From positions 1-20,634 of IMG/VR virus record IMGVR_UViG_2740892218_000001: a stretch of DNA of 20,634 bases; one strand, written 5' to 3'. This DNA comes from a virus. Taxonomy: Duplodnaviria; Heunggongvirae; Uroviricota; Caudoviricetes. The notes below the pieces were generated by a model. It was not told the DNA's origin. It made no database searches and saw only the letters and a program-made list of their open reading frames with translations. Below, in pieces: positions 1,326-20,398 of this stretch (positions are counted from its first letter, which is position 1; each line of letters begins with the position of its first letter). Position numbers and translations under genes: made by a program.

Positions 1326-1892
1326 TCAGTGGAAGTTACCAGAGTGAAACACACGAGTCCCGTGCTCAGCAAGCGCACGCAAACCAGCCATATCTACGGA
1401 ACTATCAAAAACAACCGGAACACATGAGCGTTGTTTAATAAGACTATTCAGGTTAGTTACGGCAGATCTAGCATCAGCAACAACGATATAGATATCTCTT
1501 GCGATCTCTTTAAAATCAGCAGAAGCTTCTTTGAATACCGATTTCATTGCCCCTTCAAGTCCTCTCAATTGATGCTCTATCAATCGAGATTTTTCTGGTT
1601 CAATGATAGACAACACATTGTCTACATTTTCATCGGTAGCGTTTGCAAGAACACGATAAGCATATTTCAGCATTCGAGACAATTCTTTAATCGAAGACAC
1701 CGCCTCATGAAGCTCATCATTGGTCCGTTCACTGCTGAGCGAGGATTGATGGTAAGCGTGCTGAACATTATCAGTGACAACCACCTCACAACTGAACGCA
1801 GAAGCTTGCTGTAATAGCAAACCTATTGCGACCCCAGCTTTGGCAGTGTTCAAGCTAAACATTTCATCAATCCCATTAGTCTCATTGCTCAT
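1326..1892 (-). CDS. Hypothetical 188-aa protein, upstream partner of the YafO-like toxin; no family recognised
   Basis: ATG at 1892 (MSNETNGIDEMF...) preceded by AAGGAGG with a 5-nt spacer; the track's TTG start at 1922 would include that RBS. Its TGA stop lies inside the RBS of the downstream toxin gene (8-nt gap), indicating translational coupling. Contains an R-x4-H motif (RALAEH) near the C-terminus. Confidence 0.6.
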   Translation of the reverse strand: MSNETNGIDEMFSLNTAKAGVAIGLLLQQASAFSCEVVVTDNVQHAYHQSSLSSERTNDELHEAVSSIKELSRMLKYAYRVLANATDENVDNVLSIIEPEKSRLIEHQLRGLEGAMKSVFKEASADFKEIARDIYIVVADARSAVTNLNSLIKQRSCVPVVFDSSVDMAGLRALAEHGTRVFHSGNFH

Positions 1893-1918: not shown

Positions 1919-1959
1919 TCAATAGCTATGCATCTATTGAATACACGCTATGCTCAATA
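1919..1959. promoter_or_regulatory. Candidate operator: TCAATAG-N8-CTATTGA inverted repeat centred on ATGCAT, plus a third TCAATA half-site and a GCTATGC direct repeat
   Basis: Read directly: tcaatag (1919-1925) / ctattga (1934-1940), tcaata (1954-1959), gctatgc at 1925-1931 and 1947-1953; sits 27-67 bp upstream of the 188-aa gene start in the divergent intergenic region. Confidence 0.3.
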
Positions 1960-2063
1960 ATTCTACGTCACGTGATATCATTATGCAACCATCGTTCTAT
2001 CACCAGTAGATGATGCCTCTCCATACATCATCTGGTATCCTGCACAAAACTAAGGAGGTTGGT

Positions 2064-2453
2064 GTGAAGCGATTTCTTGCTGCTATGTTCTTATTCATAT
2101 CTTTTGGGGCTACAGCAGAGTGCTGGGTCGTTGGAGATATGCGCGGAATAAGCTATTCAGAACGCAATAATTTCCATCCGGTAGAAGATGGTTTTAGTGG
2201 AACATTCACCATTAAGACAAGCGGTGAAGATGCCAGCATCACATATTCTGGTACAGATGCGGGCGGCATGGCTTACAAAGCATTGTCTAAAAACTCCATC
2301 ATAGGAATCGGCGCGAATGGCGAAACTCAACGCGTTATCGACTCATGGGTAATACATCCTACTGGAACAGTTTTAATGTCAAAAACCATTTCCGGTTATG
2401 GAAATATGGATTCAACCAAAGCTTTTGTTGGAAAAGTAAAAAGAAAATGTTAG
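2064..2453 (+). CDS. Small secreted protein of unknown function (about 129 aa, N-terminal signal peptide), divergent from the toxin operon
   Basis: AGGAGG at 2053-2058 then GTG at 2064; VKRFLAAMFLFISFGATAEC looks like a Sec signal peptide (basic n-region, hydrophobic core, ATA-E cleavage context); mature part is Gly/Ser/Thr-rich with Cys near both ends. The upstream part of track ORF 2010..2453 overlaps the RBS. Confidence 0.55.
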   Translation: MKRFLAAMFLFISFGATAECWVVGDMRGISYSERNNFHPVEDGFSGTFTIKTSGEDASITYSGTDAGGMAYKALSKNSIIGIGANGETQRVIDSWVIHPTGTVLMSKTISGYGNMDSTKAFVGKVKRKC

Positions 2454-2477
2454 CGATTGAATCCAATTTCCCATACG

Positions 2478-4388
2478 TTACTGCTGTGTTGCCTCAGTAG
2501 CAAACAGCGGCCTGACGGCATTTGCAGCGTTACTTAACGCTCTTTCATAGGCTGGTGTTCCAGCTTTAGTGTTTGCCAGACGTAAGAGCGCATTCCTTGC
2601 TGCTTTGGACTCGTACAAGCGCATGATTGCACCGAAACCAGCCTCAAGTCCCAGTGATACACCAAGGGTTGCAGTTGCGCCAATCGTTCTAATCCTGTTA
2701 GCTTGCGATTGTCCTGTCTGTGTTACTACATTTGCGGCGTCCGACCTTGCTGTTTGCTGTAGAACTTCATGAAGAGCATCAAGCTCTTTCATGTGTCTCC
2801 CACTGAATATAGTGTTATAGATCTGACCGTCAGATTGCGACTTCAACTTATTTAACTCGGTAAGAAATTTTGTTGGCGAGTCTCCTGCTTTTTCTGCAAT
2901 CTTGCTGATATAAGCAGCACGCATAGCGTTCTTTCCATCTTCACTAAGAGCAGGCCATATCCTCTTAATATCTGATGGTTTTCTGCTGAATACAACGCTG
3001 TTTATTAGCTCTGGAGTAAACTCTTTTTTAGCTTTGTTGAGATTATTCGCAATCCTTTTATTGAGAACTTTATTGAAGACGTTGGAGTAGTCAGAGTTTG
3101 CTTTGACGTATCTGGCGGCCTCTCCAGCCCCCAAATACCGCGCTGCGTTATTCCTCAAATCTGCCCCCATTGCCCTCTCCACGGCATCAGTTGCGGCTTT
3201 CGCGCTATTAGGAAAAACCATGGCATCTCCCTGAATACTTTCCCTCAAGGCTGACCGCAACTCTCTCAATAGACCAAAATCTATATCTGGTTTAGCAAGT
3301 TCTTCTCGCAAATCGGATAACCCGCGAATCAAATCCTTATTTGCCACTTTCCCAAGCCTGTTAGCTCTGGTAAGTACGTTGTCGATAACCTTAATAGATT
3401 TTGATGTGTCAACAGGTGTGTCTCCCATTTTGGTTGTAATGTCTTCAATAACGCTTCCGGCCGAATCCTTCCTTGACTTCAGAGAACCATACAGATCGTC
3501 AACAACAACTGATGGGCTATATTCACCATATTTCTCAAGCTGTTTTTTAACTAGCTGACTTCTTTTTGCATATTGCTCAGCTCGCTTTGAGCCTGTTCCC
3601 AGCAAAGCCCCCTCAGCATCCTGAGTAAGACCACGAGTGAAAGCATTTTTCGGCGGGATTACATCAGATGTCATTGGTGTCACGCCCATCGATTCTGATG
3701 TGGCAATTTTCTTCGCCACTTCTGGTGCAATATCACCTTTAAAGGCAGTTATTCCACGCTCAAGCCCTTTTGCAACAGTATTAACAGCACCACCTGTTAG
3801 CATGCCAACACCTATATCTGTTGCCAGTTTTCCCGCATCATTTTTCTCACTGTTTGCGGCGAGCGATCCGACTGCGTTTTCTGCCAGAAGACGGGCTGCG
3901 CCTTGAGTAATTCGACCAGCAAGTGTTGGCGCCTGAGTTGAAGCGCCGCCAACGCCAACAGTAGTCAGGTAAGGCAATGCCTCCGCAAACACCCTACCTT
4001 CTGTCGTTTGTGGAGTCAGAGCACCTTGCTGAAGTCCAAACGCCTGCTCTAATCCCTGAGTTGTTACTCGTGGCGCTGGTTGATATGTTCCATCGCCAAT
4101 ACCGAGTTTACCGCCAGCCCATGCCGCCGCGCTTGTTACAGCATCGGCAACTGATGCTGGTATATTTGCCACATTTACACCAGCCTGCACCAGTCCGCGA
4201 CCAGTTTCTTTTACTGCTTCGCCGAGGTCAGACATAAATCCATCTTGCTGTTCTACAGGCTGCTTTTGGTTTTGAGTTGGTTGATTACTGGAGGACAGAA
4301 TCTGAGCGATGCGACGTGCTCCCTCAGTATCACCAGCAGCATCAGCATTCCTTAACGCCGTCATCAATTGTTCACGACTATAAGCCAT
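2478..4388 (-). CDS. Ejection (internal) protein, P22 gp16-like, 636 aa
   Basis: Position (last of the 4-10-26-14-7-20-16 block), size, and TAATG stop/start overlap with the upstream gp20-like gene; Ala/Gly-rich composition typical of ejection proteins. Confidence 0.75.
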   Translation of the reverse strand: MAYSREQLMTALRNADAAGDTEGARRIAQILSSSNQPTQNQKQPVEQQDGFMSDLGEAVKETGRGLVQAGVNVANIPASVADAVTSAAAWAGGKLGIGDGTYQPAPRVTTQGLEQAFGLQQGALTPQTTEGRVFAEALPYLTTVGVGGASTQAPTLAGRITQGAARLLAENAVGSLAANSEKNDAGKLATDIGVGMLTGGAVNTVAKGLERGITAFKGDIAPEVAKKIATSESMGVTPMTSDVIPPKNAFTRGLTQDAEGALLGTGSKRAEQYAKRSQLVKKQLEKYGEYSPSVVVDDLYGSLKSRKDSAGSVIEDITTKMGDTPVDTSKSIKVIDNVLTRANRLGKVANKDLIRGLSDLREELAKPDIDFGLLRELRSALRESIQGDAMVFPNSAKAATDAVERAMGADLRNNAARYLGAGEAARYVKANSDYSNVFNKVLNKRIANNLNKAKKEFTPELINSVVFSRKPSDIKRIWPALSEDGKNAMRAAYISKIAEKAGDSPTKFLTELNKLKSQSDGQIYNTIFSGRHMKELDALHEVLQQTARSDAANVVTQTGQSQANRIRTIGATATLGVSLGLEAGFGAIMRLYESKAARNALLRLANTKAGTPAYERALSNAANAVRPLFATEATQQ

Positions 4389-5773
4389 TACTGCCCTCCG
4401 AGATATTTGCTAATTAATTCGTCATCGGACAATTGCTGTTGAGGTTGGCTATCTCCATAACTTGAGGAAAGAAAACGTTTTGCCGCAGAGTTCAATGATT
4501 CACCCTTCTTAACATCCATCCCCATGATGTTTCGGTTGCGATCAGATTGTCCTGGGCTACCGTTTGCACTCATCCACTCTGACCTAAACTCGTTGAACTT
4601 CGCGTTATTACTTTCCATTTTTGCCATACCCCTTAACCATCGAGCCATGACCATTGGATTATCCGTTTCGCTTGGAATGCCTTTCCTTGCAAACTCAATA
4701 TCCTTATCTGATGCAGGGCCGGGAGGGAGAAGCTTGGTTGCCTGCGCATTGGCTAGTTGGTTGAATCTAATCCGCATATCTCGGAGGTAGTTATCTTGCC
4801 CCGTAAGCTTAGAGAACATATTTTCAGCGTTACCGAACAAACCAGGAGTTGGCTTCTCCTTCTCCAGCGTGTCAGCGAGCGTTGTCATTGAATCGGCAGC
4901 ATTACGACTAGCTGCCGCATCACCTGCTGATTTTTCTATAGCCTTTTCCATGTTCACTGATAATTTTGGCGCTGCATTAATAAGTTCCTCGGCCTTTTTT
5001 TGTGCCTGTTGTACTTCAAAACCGAATTTCTGCTTATCAAGTGCCAGTCTTTCTGCTGCAAGTCCGTGTCCGGTCATTGCAGACTGATAGGAAAGGTTTT
5101 GCCCCCTAATAGCCCTCGCATTCGTCATGTCATTATTGCGAATGGTTTCGTTAATTCTTTGCTGCTCCTGCTGACGACCAATCATCTTATCCTGATAATC
5201 CAGCATTTTATCCGGGCCAACAGCCCCTAGCGTCATAGTAGTCAGCATGTGTGATAGCTGCTCTGGATTCTGGATACCTGTCTGAATCATCCAGTCAGCA
5301 TTCGCCCCCACGCGATTTAACCTGTCCTTGTTGTCAGTAATGAATTTACTGTAGGCTTCCGGTCCCTGAGAAAGAGCGACGTTAGCCCTCATGGCTAAAT
5401 CGCCCATATCGTTGCGTTGCTGCTCATTAAGACCGGAAAACGCCTGTTGTGCCTGCGCAACAAACGCTGGATTTTCCTGGGCAAACTTAAATAGTCCCGA
5501 TGGATCACCAGAAGCCCATGCATCAGCGTGAACCTTATTGAACGCACTAATAGCTTTCTGTTGCTGTTCCTGATTGTAAATATCAGCAACTCCAGCCAGA
5601 CCACGTAACGCGGTCAGACCAACGTTATTTGCACCTGAGCGAGCCAGTTCATTGTTTTCGCGGATCAGACCAAGCGTTGCGTTAATGTCGCTTGCCTTTG
5701 GTGCATTCTCGTTTTGCGTACCGATGCCAGCCAGAAACCCACCAGAATTAATACCCTGTTGCCACGTAGCCAT
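4388..5773 (-). CDS. Ejection protein, P22 gp20-like, 461 aa
   Basis: Position and size match P22 gp20 (about 471 aa); conserved gene order; tight coupling with neighbours. Confidence 0.75.
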
Positions 5774-7781: not shown

Positions 7782-9199
7782 TACTCAATCCTTATCTGGC
7801 AGCCAGACAGAGTGACAGGTGACTTCGTGATAACGCGCAATTTGAAGCCAATGTTTTTCCTGATGCGCCCTACTTTCTTCCACAAAACGCGTTTGTCGTA
7901 AACGAACGGTTCATTCTGCTCAATCATCTGCTCACGACCGTAATTTATGCCGTCAGTGGTTGCAGAGAGAAAAAGGCGGTCAGCATACTGCGCAACGCCA
8001 GTGGATGATTCCACCTCCAGATCGAAGCATCTGGCGTTATCCGCTTTGAACAACGGAGTAAACAGCAGGTGTTCTTGCTGTAGCCCATACTGGCTGCTGA
8101 TATCGAACTGCAATTTCCCGGTAACCGATTCCAGCTTATCGCCGCACGTTATCTGATTGCCTTCGTAAATGAAGTCGATAGCGCGGTACACATCGTCATA
8201 CAGGCCTGTTTTCAACACACACCATTGCGGACCATTGGCGCTTGAAGATGCGTCGTACACGAGAACATGGCGCGGAAGGTGGATAATCAGCAACTCATGA
8301 GCATCAAATCTCAGCGATTCCATCACACCATCAGCCAGTTCATCAGCAGTGTAGGAGCGGAGGATTTTCTCAATGCTCGCGCTGGCGATTGGTGACACCT
8401 GACCGGAGCCGATGATATACACAGACGGCGCACCTGTTGCCGGATTGCTGATAAACGCATAGGAATCAGCAAACGGCGTTTTGCAGTAAGTTCCGGCAAT
8501 ACCTTTCTGCACCATCAGCGATGGCTGTGCGACATACAAAGCAGCACCAACGGTGGTTGCACCAGTCAGGGAAAAATACTCAATCGTCGATGAACCAAAA
8601 CAGACGATGAAGTCTCGCCATGTTCCGATGCCAATGATGCCGTCAGGCTGAGACTCGGCACGATATTGTGCGCTGTAACGGTCAGGATGCGATTCGTCTT
8701 CAAGGTCAGTGATGAACCATGAATCAGTGCCGTCTTTTGACCACGCATAACGCCCACGCAAGCGTGTAATGTCGCGAACTGAACCTAACTCATACTGAGT
8801 GAATCCACTGTCTGTAGGCCAGTTTGAGACGGTTTTAACCGTGCCATCATAACGATACTCTACCAGTTGACCATTAACACCTACAGCCTGAGATGTTCGA
8901 CCATGCGCCATTGATACGCGACCACTTCCGGCAACATCACCAACCTCGCTTTCGCCCTTATACAACTTGCCACCGCAAACGCGATAAACAGCATTCTGCG
9001 CCATGTTGTACTCGACACCGCGCGATACACCATTCACATCAGAACGTTTGGCAATGCCCGGGAATGAGCGAAGATATCCGCTGCTGTTGAGTATTTCTTT
9101 GGGTGTAGCCAGCATATTCACTGGCAGATAGTCGATATAGTCGGCGTTTCTAAAGTCTTTGCCGACACCTTTCATAAGCGGAAGTTGCTGAATCGGCAT
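7781..9199 (-). CDS. Tail hub protein, P22 gp10-like, 472 aa
   Basis: Same length as P22 gp10 (472 aa) and same position between gp4 and the needle. Confidence 0.8.
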
Positions 9200-18640: not shown

Positions 18641-19113
18641 ACCTCAATCTCTCTGACCGTCCCGCCCGCTTCTTTGAATTTTGCAATCAGGCTGTCAGCC
18701 TTATGCTCGAACTGACCATAACCAGCCCCCGGCAGTGAAGCCCAGATATTGCTGCAACGGTCAATTGCCTGACGGATATCACCGCGATCAATCATCGGTA
18801 AAGCGCCACGCTCTTTAATCTGCTGCAATGCCACAGCGTCCTGGCTTTTCGGAGAGAAGTCTTTCAGGCCAAGTTGCTTACGATAGGCATCCCACCAACG
18901 GGAAAGAAGCTGGTAACGTCCGGCGGCTGTTGATTTGAGCTTTGGGTTTAGCGTGACAAGTTTGCGAGGGTGATCGGAGTAATCAGTGAATAGCTCTCCG
19001 CCAACAATGACGTCATAACCATGATTTCTGGTTTTCTGTCGTCCGTTATCAGTTCCCTCTGACCACGCCAGCATATCGAGGAACGCCTTACGTTGATTAT
19101 TGATTTCCACCAT
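18637..19113 (-). CDS. R: Endolysin R (lytic transglycosylase), 158 aa
   Basis: [62 protein letters not shown]... is near-identical to lambda R as recalled. Confidence 0.95.
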
Positions 19114-19420
19114 CTTCTACTCCGGCTTTTTTAGCAGCGAAGCGTTTGATAAGCGAACCAATCGAGTCAGTACCGATGTAGCCGATGAACACGCTCGTTA
19201 TATAAGCGAGATTGCTACTTAGTCCGGCGAAGTCGAGAAGGTCACGAATGAACCAGGCGATAATGGCGCACATCGTTGCGTCGATTACTGTTTTTGTAAA
19301 CGCACCGCCATTATATCTGCCGCGAAGGTACGCCATTGCAAACGCAAGGATTGCCCCGATGCCTTGTTCCTTTGCCGCGAGAATGGCGGCTAACAGGTCA
19401 TGTTTTTCTGGCATCTTCAT
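19097..19420 (-). CDS. S: Holin S (class I) with dual-start motif, 107 aa
   Basis: [62 protein letters not shown]... is near-identical to lambda S as recalled; Met1-Lys2-Met3 dual start and the upstream sdi hairpin (CCCCTTATTGGGG, plus 19424-19436) are present. Confidence 0.95.
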
Positions 19421-19662
19421 GTCTTACCCCCAATAAGGGGATTTGCTCTATTTAATTAGGAATAAGGTCGATTACTGATAGAACAAATCCAGGCTACTGT
19501 GTTTAGTAATCAGATTTGTTCGTGACCGATATGCACGGGCAAAACGGCAGGAGGTTGTTAGCGCAACCTCATGCCACCCGCTTTCACGAAGGTCATGTGT
19601 AGAAGGCCGCAGCATAACTATCACTGATGAATTCAGGATAGCCAGTGGCTACGGCTCAGTTA

Positions 19663-19738
19663 TGGTGCTGGTTAACGGACTTGAACCGCTACCCATTCGC
19701 TTACAAGGCGACTGCTCTACCATTGGAGCTAAACCAGC
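19663..19738 (-). tRNA. tRNA-Thr (anticodon UGU), 76 nt with encoded CCA
   Basis: Folded by hand from the minus strand: perfect 7-bp acceptor stem (GCTGGTT/AACCAGC), U8, 4-bp D stem (GCTC/GAGC) with a GG-containing loop, anticodon loop CTTGTAA, T-arm AGCGG-TTCAAGT-CCGTT, discriminator A, CCA. Confidence 0.75.
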
Positions 19739-19743
19739 ATGTT

Positions 19744-19818
19744 TGGCGGGGCAGCGTGGACTCGAACCACGATAAGAAGGTTAACAGCCTTCCGTAATGA
19801 CCTTTATACGACTGACCC
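19744..19818 (-). tRNA. tRNA-Asn-like (anticodon GUU), atypical and possibly a pseudo-tRNA, 75 nt
   Basis: Perfect anticodon stem (GAAGG/CCTTC) with loop CTGTTAA and perfect T-arm (CGTGG-TTCGAGT-CCACG); anticodon and T loops match E. coli tRNA-Asn as recalled; but one U-C mismatch in the acceptor stem and only a 3-bp D stem. Confidence 0.5.
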
Positions 19819-19822
19819 AAAT

Positions 19823-19864
19823 AAAAAAAGCCACCGTTGCAACTTAAGAGTCACTAACGGCAGC
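19823..19864 (-). terminator. Candidate tR'-like terminator of the short late leader transcript (hairpin followed by U7)
   Basis: Minus strand GCUGCCGUU...AACGGUGGC pairs over 9 bp (two G-U pairs) around a 17-nt loop containing a CTTAAG palindrome, followed by TTTTTTT; lies about 35-75 nt downstream of a TTGACA hexamer at 19898-19903. Confidence 0.35.
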
Positions 19865-19909
19865 TTATGCGAATAGTGTTGCTCATTTGCTCAATGATGT
19901 CAACACGTT

Positions 19910-20398
19910 CTATGCTACATGTTTAATTTTCTCTACACGTTTCCGGTTTTTAAACGCACTATCCAGAACCGGGTAAATCATAAACAACGAAGCATTGAGG
20001 ATTTCGTCAACTTCCCGGCGACAGGTTGCGAGCGATGGTTTTTGAATACGCCCGCCGCCCCGGCATAACATCTTGCGAGGTCTTGCGACACGATGATAGT
20101 AAGATGCAATGGCATGCTTGGAAGATCCATGAGCGTAGTAGCTGAGGAGGATGCCAAAGGCTTTCTTGTCAATGTACATGACGGAATCGACGACCTGAGA
20201 AATCAACATTCCATCATCATCATTACACATTGGCCTTGTCATAACTCTTCCCGGCTCTACGCTCTCCATGAACTTCGCTATTACGCTGCTCATGCGCTTT
20301 TCCAGACGACCTGAATAAACCCATGCGCCCCACAGTTCAAGCCAGCCATTCAGCCAATCGTGCTGTTCTTTGGTGAGGTTTAGTTCTCTTATGCCCAT
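19910..20398 (-). CDS. Q: Late-gene antitermination protein Q (Q21/933W-type family), 162 aa
   Basis: Position immediately upstream of tRNAs and the S-R-Rz cassette; N-terminal LELWGAWV segment resembles the ERWGAW motif of 933W/phage 21 Q as recalled; GGGAGAA RBS upstream of ATG. Confidence 0.7.
   Translation of the reverse strand: MGIRELNLTKEQHDWLNGWLELWGAWVYSGRLEKRMSSVIAKFMESVEPGRVMTRPMCNDDDGMLISQVVDSVMYIDKKAFGILLSYYAHGSSKHAIASYYHRVARPRKMLCRGGGRIQKPSLATCRREVDEILNASLFMIYPVLDSAFKNRKRVEKIKHVA

Follow-up and report, generated by a model that had tools for sequence, protein, structure and literature searches.

The closest described relatives of the locus studied here are late operons of lambdoid and P22-like phages that carry two tandem transfer RNA (tRNA) genes. 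In 2013, a tRNA-Asn(GUU) gene in tandem with a tRNA-Thr(UGU) gene was reported downstream of the late antiterminator gene Q in phages SfI, Sf6, ST64T, PS3, and 21 (PMC3636060), and the site downstream of the late promoter PR' in lambdoid phages is a recognized "moron" slot (PMC4104026). The GenBank record of Sf6 gives the order PR', qut, tR', tRNA-Asn, tRNA-Thr, and S107/S105, marked "similar to phage 21," and in the record of phage 21 the promoter pQ and a 50-nt leader RNA are followed by the tRNA cassette. Annotations of the pair also exist for many P22-like phages of Salmonella and E. coli. Here, we analyzed this cassette in the virus record IMGVR_UViG_2740892218_000001, whose whole stretch of 20,634 nt is called the window below. 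The Asn/Thr late-leader cassette is an already known feature and is not new. The 156-bp pair of the window is 99.4% identical to those of phage 21, Sf6, and S135, 98.7% identical to that of HK446, and 98.1% identical to that of SfI. The genes, their order, and their site after the terminator tR' and before the holin gene are shared with phage 21, Sf6, SfI, HK446, and many Lederbergvirus phages, and the tRNA-Thr is identical in HK446, phage 21, and Sf6. The tRNA-Asn of the window differs from that of phage 21 and Sf6 in having C69 (U4·C69) and not U69 (U4·U69). The original prediction, made from the sequence of the window, had likened the arrangement to that of Stx phages. This comparison was right in general terms, and Stx phages use the same "moron" slot downstream of PR' and tR' in the lambdoid late operon (PMC4104026). 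However, the exact precedent is the cassette of phage 21, Sf6, SfI, and HK446. Stx phages are said, after Plunkett et al. in 1999, to carry the genes ileZ, argN, and argO for rare-codon tRNAs followed by stx, whereas the species in the window are Asn and Thr and no toxin gene comes after them.

P2 OLD, the classic excluder of lambda, has host tRNA-Thr(UGU) as its primary lethal target; cleavage of this tRNA occurs in its paired CNG motifs, after C28 and after C40, and rescue from OLD is provided by tRNA-Thr(UGU) genes of phages (PMC12445682). For the phage gene tRNA-Thr6, resistance to OLD needs both an altered CNG motif and the loss of the 27:43 pair (PMC12445682). AriB of the PARIS system has a related specificity: the change of U39 to A abolishes cleavage of tRNA-Lys, and the Lys, Thr, and Asn tRNA variants of T5 jointly neutralize PARIS (PMC12409363). 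Gly(UCC) and Pro(UGG) are also listed as OLD targets, and the tRNA-Thr(UGU) of HK446 "provided strong counter-defense" against OLD for HK97, HK542, and Bas34 (bioRxiv 10.64898/2026.07.10.737580). From the comparisons given below, we consider it probable that the window encodes two functional, phage-specific elongator tRNAs in an accessory cassette, which likely serve as nuclease-resistant stand-ins against Toprim nucleases of the P2/P4 type.

Nuclease target motifs in the two tRNAs

The tRNA-Thr of the window is base-for-base the tRNA-Thr of HK446 (100%), and its anticodon is that of the critical host target of OLD, tRNA-Thr(UGU). The anticodon stem of the host tRNA encoded by thrU has 5 bp (arm ACUGA/UCAGU), with CUG/CAG at positions 28-30/40-42 and UAAUCA at positions 36-41. 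In the tRNA-Thr of the window, the G27·A43 mismatch shortens the stem to 4 bp (GUCGC/GCGAA), the same positions read UCG/CGA and UAAGCG, and A16 replaces U16. The paired CNG motifs at which OLD cleaves host tRNA-ThrU are absent from this tRNA, which combines the two features of the OLD rule, an altered CNG motif and a shortened stem. Host tRNA-Asn has a 5-bp anticodon stem with CGG/CCG at positions 28-30/40-42 and UAAUCC at positions 36-41. The tRNA-Asn of the window carries AAG/CUU and UAACCU at these positions, and it shows one half of the OLD rule, since the motif is altered but the stem keeps its full 5 bp. The AriB cleavage site U36-A-A-U39-C40|N41 is disrupted in both tRNAs of the window, and U16 is changed in the tRNA-Thr.

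The OLD-resistant tRNA-Thr(UGU) genes of T4, Bas32, and Bas33 and those known as Thr6 and Thr21 resemble the gene of the window in anticodon, altered CNG motif, and lost 27:43 pair. However, they belong mostly to virulent phages with large arrays and early or middle expression, whereas the gene of the window belongs to a temperate phage, lies behind the late terminator, and has a single partner tRNA. Two of the three T5 species, Thr and Asn, are shared with the window, and U39 is replaced in them. Position 39 is G in the tRNA-Thr of both phages, whereas in tRNA-Asn it is C in the window and G in T5. Unlike the T5 set, the window holds no tRNA-Lys(UUU), and the resistance of its tRNAs to AriB is predicted: the change of U39 to A is the only one tested experimentally, and only in tRNA-Lys.

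Two further signs of evasion were tried and rejected. Stronger divergence of the anticodon stem gave no specific signal, as every arm differs from the host genes. The avoidance of U39 in phage Thr, Asn, and Lys genes (8 of 9 genes) was set aside because the genes are too few and lack independence.

Because the tRNA-Thr is identical to the HK446 tRNA and carries both resistance features, it would act as a nuclease-resistant replacement; the in-trans evidence comes from the preprint on the identical HK446 molecule, and the role in the natural late operon is presumed from it. Because the tRNA-Asn is free of the AriB site (U39 to C) and of the paired CNG motifs of the host, we infer that it may have the same role. 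In the mechanism that we envisage, Q would modify RNA polymerase at PR' and read through tR', which, to judge from the anatomy of the locus, would lead to efficient transcription of the tRNAs. From general knowledge of tRNA maturation, the tRNAs would then be cut from the long late transcript by host tRNA-processing enzymes, and these replacements would stand in for host tRNAs destroyed by Toprim anticodon-stem nucleases. The supply of tRNA for decoding ACA would probably be a secondary benefit of the tRNA-Thr.

The GenBank record of HK446 (NC_019714) annotates zero tRNA genes. When ARAGORN was run on HK446, a tRNA-Asn(GUU) was found directly upstream of the tRNA-Thr, as in the window (1501-1575 and 1581-1656 of the examined stretch). 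This tRNA-Asn is unmentioned in the 2026 preprint (bioRxiv 10.64898/2026.07.10.737580). The tRNA-Asn as a second nuclease-resistant replacement may be the only thread of the present analysis with some novelty.

Structure and conservation of the two tRNA genes

ARAGORN called exactly two tRNA genes in the whole window, both located between Q and S on the strand transcribed late, as the original prediction had it. In Rfam RF00005, the tRNA-Thr scored 61.5 bits and the tRNA-Asn scored 54.2 bits, with a gathering score of 29, and a permissive Rfam scan of positions 19380-19960 found no third, degenerate tRNA such as a remnant of tRNA-Lys. The acceptor-stem mismatch and the 3-bp D stem that had been noted for the tRNA-Asn were seen in the Rfam alignment as two non-pairs, U4·C69 in the acceptor stem and U13·U22, by which the D stem is left with 3 bp. 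The anticodon arm of this tRNA is GAAGG-CUGUUAA-CCUUC, and its discriminator is G73. The tRNA-Thr had been described as canonical, and this description did not hold. A G27·A43 mismatch lies atop its anticodon stem (arm GUCGC-CUUGUAA-GCGAA), and its D loop reads C14 A15 A16 U17, in which C14 atypically replaces the usual A14. The contrast drawn between a canonical tRNA-Thr and an atypical tRNA-Asn is thereby lost, as the tRNA-Thr is itself atypical and its G27·A43 mismatch is a feature with known functional meaning.

The anticodon loops, CUUGUAA in tRNA-Thr and CUGUUAA in tRNA-Asn, have 7 nt with U33 and A37, the T loops (UUCAAGU and UUCGAGU, respectively) are canonical and of the UUCRANY type, and both D loops contain G18 G19. 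The identity elements for the Thr synthetase are G1-C72, C2-G71, G35, and U36, and those for the Asn synthetase are G34, U35, U36, and G73. All of these elements occur in the sequences of the window. In score, loops, covariation, and identity elements, both genes have the properties of elongator tRNAs, and their charging is predicted.

The conservation of the pair was examined in 127 related cassettes, which were gathered via the D-arm pattern of the tRNA-Asn, and base pairs were counted on distinct variants. Among the 19 variants of tRNA-Asn, 6 pairs (20 cells) were changed on both sides with pairing kept, for example, 6:67 (A-U/G-C), 7:66 (G-C/A-U), and 28:42 (A-U/C-G). Cells of tRNA-Asn were paired in 90% of cases, compared with 33-53% in slid controls. 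The 20 variants of tRNA-Thr showed compensatory changes in 4 pairs (11 cells). For both tRNAs, the covariation score was reached by 0 of 500 shuffles, and the slid controls were far lower than the observed covariation. In tRNA-Asn, 17 of the 19 variants had no pair at 4:69 (as a rule U·U), and all 19 had U·U at 13:22; in tRNA-Thr, G27·A43 was found in 20 of 20. Because pairs change in a compensatory manner and the mismatches are constant across the family, neither tRNA gene is decaying, and the oddities are fixed family traits. The suggestion that the tRNA-Asn may be a decaying copy is contradicted by these counts.

The allele of the tRNA-Thr in the window is the commonest one (61 of 109 tRNA-Thr(UGU) genes). 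The tRNA-Asn equals the consensus except for one base, U69 to C (position 19750, G on the plus strand), and this exact allele is rare, with 1 occurrence in 368 carrier E. coli genomes and 0 in the 127 sampled contigs. The 4:69 position is unpaired with either C69 or U69. C69 also occurs in two IMG/VR contigs, which have another base at position 73.

A decaying tRNA-Asn pseudogene alongside a functional tRNA-Thr is extremely improbable in our estimate. Such decay would be in keeping with the mismatch at 4:69, the 3-bp D stem, an Rfam score below that of the tRNA-Thr, the rare extra single-nucleotide polymorphism at position 69, and some singleton variants in which the T stem is broken or the 3' end is changed. 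However, in addition to the compensatory changes and the excess of pairing over the slid controls, the mismatches are invariant across E. coli, Klebsiella, and other hosts, and the anticodon GUU and G73 are intact. Furthermore, no other member of the arrays is as constant as the tRNA-Asn, which survives where the tRNA-Thr has decayed or been replaced, as in phage L and in Asn-Gly arrays. In the phage L lineage, the Thr gene has decayed and the tRNA-Asn is intact. The second gene of Salmonella phage L (1281-1352 of the examined stretch) is annotated as tRNA-Leu(TAA) and is a decayed tRNA-Thr derivative, in which the acceptor and the T arm are kept, indels are found in the D and anticodon arms, and ARAGORN makes no call.

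Codon usage of the late genes

In the 18 late-strand open reading frames (ORFs) of the window, ACA is used at 14.7 per 1000 codons and makes up 26% of Thr codons. The value in E. coli is ~7 per 1000, so that ACA in the late genes is at about twice the host value. The host value for ACA was cross-checked against the host figure of the SfI paper. In SfI, ACA was reported at 17.3 compared with 7.1 in the host (PMC3636060). Host tRNA-Thr(UGU) comes from the single gene thrU, whereas tRNA-Asn has four gene copies.

These values are consistent with codon supplementation only, unrelated to defense systems, and the expected late expression of the cassette coincides with the bulk synthesis of structural proteins. 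Nevertheless, we regard codon supply as the sole explanation as unlikely. Asn codons are enriched just 1.1- to 1.4-fold in the late genes of the window, with four tRNA-Asn genes in the host, and the authors of the SfI study saw no Asn bias and called the tRNA-Asn's significance "not clear" (PMC3636060). The most skewed codons of the late genes, AGG (5.8-fold), AGA (3.5-fold), and AAG (2.7-fold), are served by neither tRNA of the cassette, and the pair is missing from 63 of the 80 phages that share the holin. In addition, extra host tRNA-ThrU gives no protection from OLD, whereas phage tRNA-Thr protects (PMC12445682; bioRxiv 10.64898/2026.07.10.737580). Because the host tRNA fails against OLD and the phage tRNA works, the sequence matters and not only the amount. 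The codon-usage comparison that had been proposed as a check thus spoke for the tRNA-Thr but not for the tRNA-Asn, and codon supply is a real but partial explanation, which applies to Thr and not to Asn.

Distribution and mobility of the cassette

The cassette was found in 369 of 5,426 complete E. coli genomes (~7%). Among 80 IMG/VR contigs whose S protein is 100% identical to that of the window, 17 carry the pair and 63 do not. In many of the contigs without the pair, homology ends exactly at the outer ends of the tRNAs (19818 and 19661), and a different segment of ~190 bp fills the slot. In lambda, one such alternative of 163 nt separates tR' from the conserved S leader. Across 123 contigs with the cassette, the sequences joined to the pair fall into at least 11 classes upstream and at least 16 downstream, and the tRNA-Asn starts 3-4 nt after the terminator T-run in 109 of these 123 sampled cassettes. 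The spacers AACAT and AATAT are two common forms in the family, with 47 copies each. The pair is an accessory, dispensable, and mobile "moron" cassette directly after tR'. The window has its own combination of modules, a phage-21-type Q and PR' with a lambda-type S leader, which is one of many such combinations.

We give hardly any credence to the explanation that the tRNAs make up for a host tRNA gene that the prophage interrupts on integration. This explanation has been suggested for HK446 (bioRxiv 10.64898/2026.07.10.737580), and relatives do integrate in tRNA genes, as SfI does in thrW (PMC3636060). However, the near-identical prophage of E. coli E9 adjoins ybhC and is not inside a tRNA gene. 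The SfI site thrW, which we take to be a tRNA-Thr(CGU) gene by the naming in the AriB paper, is neither a UGU nor an Asn gene. Moreover, many different early and late modules adjoin the cassette, and little expression of a gene behind tR' would be expected in a lysogen, a timing that does not suit compensation. Replacement of cleaved tRNAs remains the preferred reading.

The segments that occupy the slot in tRNA-less phages (six contigs, at about 2050-2260 of each examined stretch, and lambda 44782-44944) are ~160-190 bp long and lie between tR' and the conserved S leader. A long hairpin (GCACAACAGGUAAGAGCA...UGCUCUUUCCGUUGUGC) is present in them together with the closing stem GUUGUGCUG...CAGCACAAC-CCAA. 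At its end, one class has a T-arm-like GGUUCGAUUCC and an acceptor-like strand, and the slot sequence of lambda belongs to the tRNA-less segment classes. Rfam searches of 12 tRNA-less leaders gave zero matches at the gathering threshold. An identity with transfer-messenger RNA was rejected, since the only match in a permissive scan was T-arm-like and 17 nt long, which is not meaningful. The anti-small RNAs AgvB and AsxR, which belong to this "moron" site, were also considered as occupants, and their sequences could not be linked to these segments.

In the DE3 prophage of E. coli Origami2-DE3, a phage-21 Q and the Asn/Thr cassette (99.4%) are present at 1921-3488 of the examined stretch, together with a class II holin and a lysozyme of the phage 21 type. 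Both extra tRNA genes may also be present in other DE3 lysogens; one strain was examined.

Recurrence of Asn and Thr in other phages

The combination of Asn(GUU) and Thr(UGU) is also found in P1, P7, and D6, in the N4-like phage VEc25, in T5, in Klebsiella phage Mulock, and in lambdoid and P22-like phages. In P1, P7, and D6, the two genes are adjacent (2-nt spacer) and have the same two anticodons and order, likewise in temperate coliphages. However, their identity to the genes of the window is only ~75%, and their site is the ban region under C1 control and not a late leader. The P1 pair is at 1451-1604 of the examined stretch. VEc25 is annotated with Asn, Thr, and Pro (1037-1286 of the examined stretch), and ARAGORN adds a tRNA-Ser(UGA) between Asn and Thr. 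The Asn and Thr genes of T5 are at 2668-2742 and 7953-8030 of the examined stretch, and the array of Mulock is Asn-Phe-Thr-Arg. The recurrence of Asn together with Thr may point to a shared selective pressure.

The slot of lambdoid phages holds variable arrays, all of which begin with the same tRNA-Asn and continue with the partners Gly(UCC), Phe(GAA), Thr(UGU), or Arg(UCU). Among IMG/VR contigs, the array types were Asn-Gly (8 contigs), Asn-Phe-Thr-Arg (5 contigs), and Asn-Thr-Arg(UCU) (2 contigs). Most of the phage Gly(UCC) variants, which presumably resemble host glyT, have G and not A at loop position 38. One IMG/VR contig carries a chimeric tRNA-Thr ~80 nt past the tRNA-Asn, in which the phage allele makes up the 5' 26 nt and the remainder equals host thrU, and a glyT-like tRNA-Gly(UCC) follows 3 nt further on. 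The chimeric tRNA-Thr may reflect phage-host tRNA recombination or misassembly.

Organization of the late operon

On the late strand, the order is Q, PR', tR', tRNA-Asn, tRNA-Thr, a gap of 242 nt, and S, and the genes R, Rz, and Rz1 come after S. The features are listed in Table 1.

Table 1. Positions of the tRNA genes and neighboring features in the window
Feature	Position	Strand	Description and basis
tRNA-Asn(GUU)	19744-19818	minus	75 nt, encoded CCA; ARAGORN and Rfam RF00005
Inter-tRNA spacer AACAT	19739-19743	minus	5 nt; read from sequence
tRNA-Thr(UGU)	19663-19738	minus	76 nt, encoded CCA; ARAGORN and Rfam RF00005
Q late antiterminator, phage-21 type	19910-20398	minus	162 aa; ORF and homology to phage 21 Q
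PR' (phage 21 pQ) late promoter	19879-19905	minus	Placed by homology
Late leader RNA, ends in tR'	19819-19868	minus	~50 nt; homology to phage 21 "aRNA" and fold
Lambda-type lysis-cassette leader	19421-19661	minus	Gapless alignment with lambda 44945-45185
S holin/antiholin (S107/S105, dual start MKM...)	19097-19420	minus	ORF; first late gene after the cassette
sar antisense RNA, P22 immI region	288-355	plus	Rfam RF00262, 95.6 bits

The 3' end of Q and the DNA downstream of it aligned near-perfectly with Q and the pQ region of phage 21, and Q is annotated as "antiterminator Q family protein" in the E9 prophage. A simple sigma-70 promoter and terminator scan of positions 19380-20000 returned nothing and missed both PR' and tR', which were located instead by homology to phage 21 and by folding. 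For PR', positions 19960-19815 of the window were aligned to the phage 21 record AJ237660, in which the promoter is annotated at 4616-4641. The two sequences differ here by 1 substitution and one 1-nt indel, both within the annotated promoter span. The terminator tR' consists of a hairpin at 19830-19866 followed by U7-A-U3 at 19819-19829, with a folding energy of -20.2 kcal/mol (z = -3.3). Manual reading gave a 9-bp stem and a 17-nt loop, and the loop limit of the terminator scan is 3-8 nt. The leader and tR' match the annotated 50-nt "aRNA" of phage 21 and the "qut site" and "t R' terminator" of Sf6.

The tRNA-Asn starts 1 nt past the last U of U7-A-U3 and 3-4 nt past the run of seven U's, and with this geometry the removal of the leader would be precise. 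In addition, the slot of tRNA-less phages, lambda included, holds other structured, non-tRNA segments. Both points would agree with RNA-processing punctuation, in which the tRNAs are mainly entry points for RNase P and RNase E that detach the leader and set the 5' end and the stability of the messenger RNA for lysis and structural proteins. We consider this explanation very unlikely. It leaves unaccounted for the recurrence of exactly Asn(GUU) and Thr(UGU) in unrelated phages as well as the conserved anticodons and identity elements, and no experimental support for it was found.

The stretch between the tRNAs and S had been described as an ordinary leader of 225 bp with the sdi hairpin and with no toxin or other cargo. 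No protein cargo was indeed found after the tRNA genes, and the leader is of the lambda type with sdi, but its length has to be corrected to the 242 nt given above. Over the 241 nt at 19421-19661, identity to lambda 44945-45185 is ~96%. It is complete over the last ~150 nt, a part in which the sdi hairpin CCCCUUAUUGGGGG (19427-19440) and the dual S107/S105 start are located. The minus-strand leader at 19395-19662 folds with -92 kcal/mol (z = -5.9 versus shuffled sequences), and its structure exceeds the known sdi hairpin.

S is annotated as "phage holin, lambda family" in the E9 prophage, which is 99.2% identical to the window across a 601-bp query (19400-20000). The coat, portal, ejection-protein, and tailspike genes of this prophage are of the P22 type. 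The window represents the late half of an E. coli phage or prophage of the P22-like group (Lederbergvirus), and it is labeled P22-like because the sar RNA is present.

Discussion

The nuclease-resistant replacement of host tRNAs is best founded for the tRNA-Thr, and an extension to the whole cassette is proposed here only tentatively. In this extension, the tRNA-Asn would be a second cleavage-resistant tRNA, and the Asn/Thr pair, joined by Gly(UCC) in sister arrays, might form a compact, Q-controlled counter-defense of temperate lambdoid and P22-like phages. Its possible targets, named with the same reserve, are P2 OLD, PARIS AriB, and relatives on competing P2/P4 elements. The conserved oddities, U4·U69 and U13·U22 in tRNA-Asn and G27·A43 and C14 in tRNA-Thr, could then belong to the evasion design, which we regard as conceivable and still doubtful.

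Several points weigh against nuclease-resistant replacement. The rescue by the HK446 tRNA-Thr was obtained by plasmid expression in trans, HK446 also encodes the protein OLD inhibitor Oad2, which confounds the natural contribution of the tRNA, and the Thr tRNA alone gave no rescue of lambda or of recB toxicity (bioRxiv 10.64898/2026.07.10.737580). The cassette behind tR' should be expressed late, whereas OLD is triggered by early functions and replication. No tRNA-Lys(UUU), the main target of AriB, was found in the window (ARAGORN; Rfam scan of 19380-19960) or in the 127 arrays, and the PARIS system of strain B185 would not be fully countered without this tRNA. For the tRNA-Asn, the proposal is a prediction from its sequence. 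A paired CAG/CUG, that is, a CNG motif, is present in 8 of the 19 distinct Asn variants (Klebsiella/Mulock type). The P1 pair retains CUG/CAG in tRNA-Thr and UAAUCA in tRNA-Asn and is thus without the evasion features. The absence of the motifs could simply reflect distance, as phage and host tRNAs differ in every arm. Finally, the twofold enrichment of ACA in the late genes favors simple codon supply for the tRNA-Thr.

tRNA-cleaving defenses and the phage tRNAs that evade them are a fast-moving field. From the viewpoint of annotation, the cassette is an ordinary and known accessory tRNA pair. It is nevertheless a widespread cassette of temperate phages, found in ~7% of complete E. coli genomes and in the DE3 prophage of at least one expression strain (Origami2-DE3), and it holds two tRNA species that are targeted by OLD and PARIS. 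The present comparison bears on the role of the tRNA-Asn and on the question of late-expressed tRNAs facing an early-triggered abortive system. If the tRNA-Asn is truly a second resistant replacement, the pair would be a compact counter-defense cassette.

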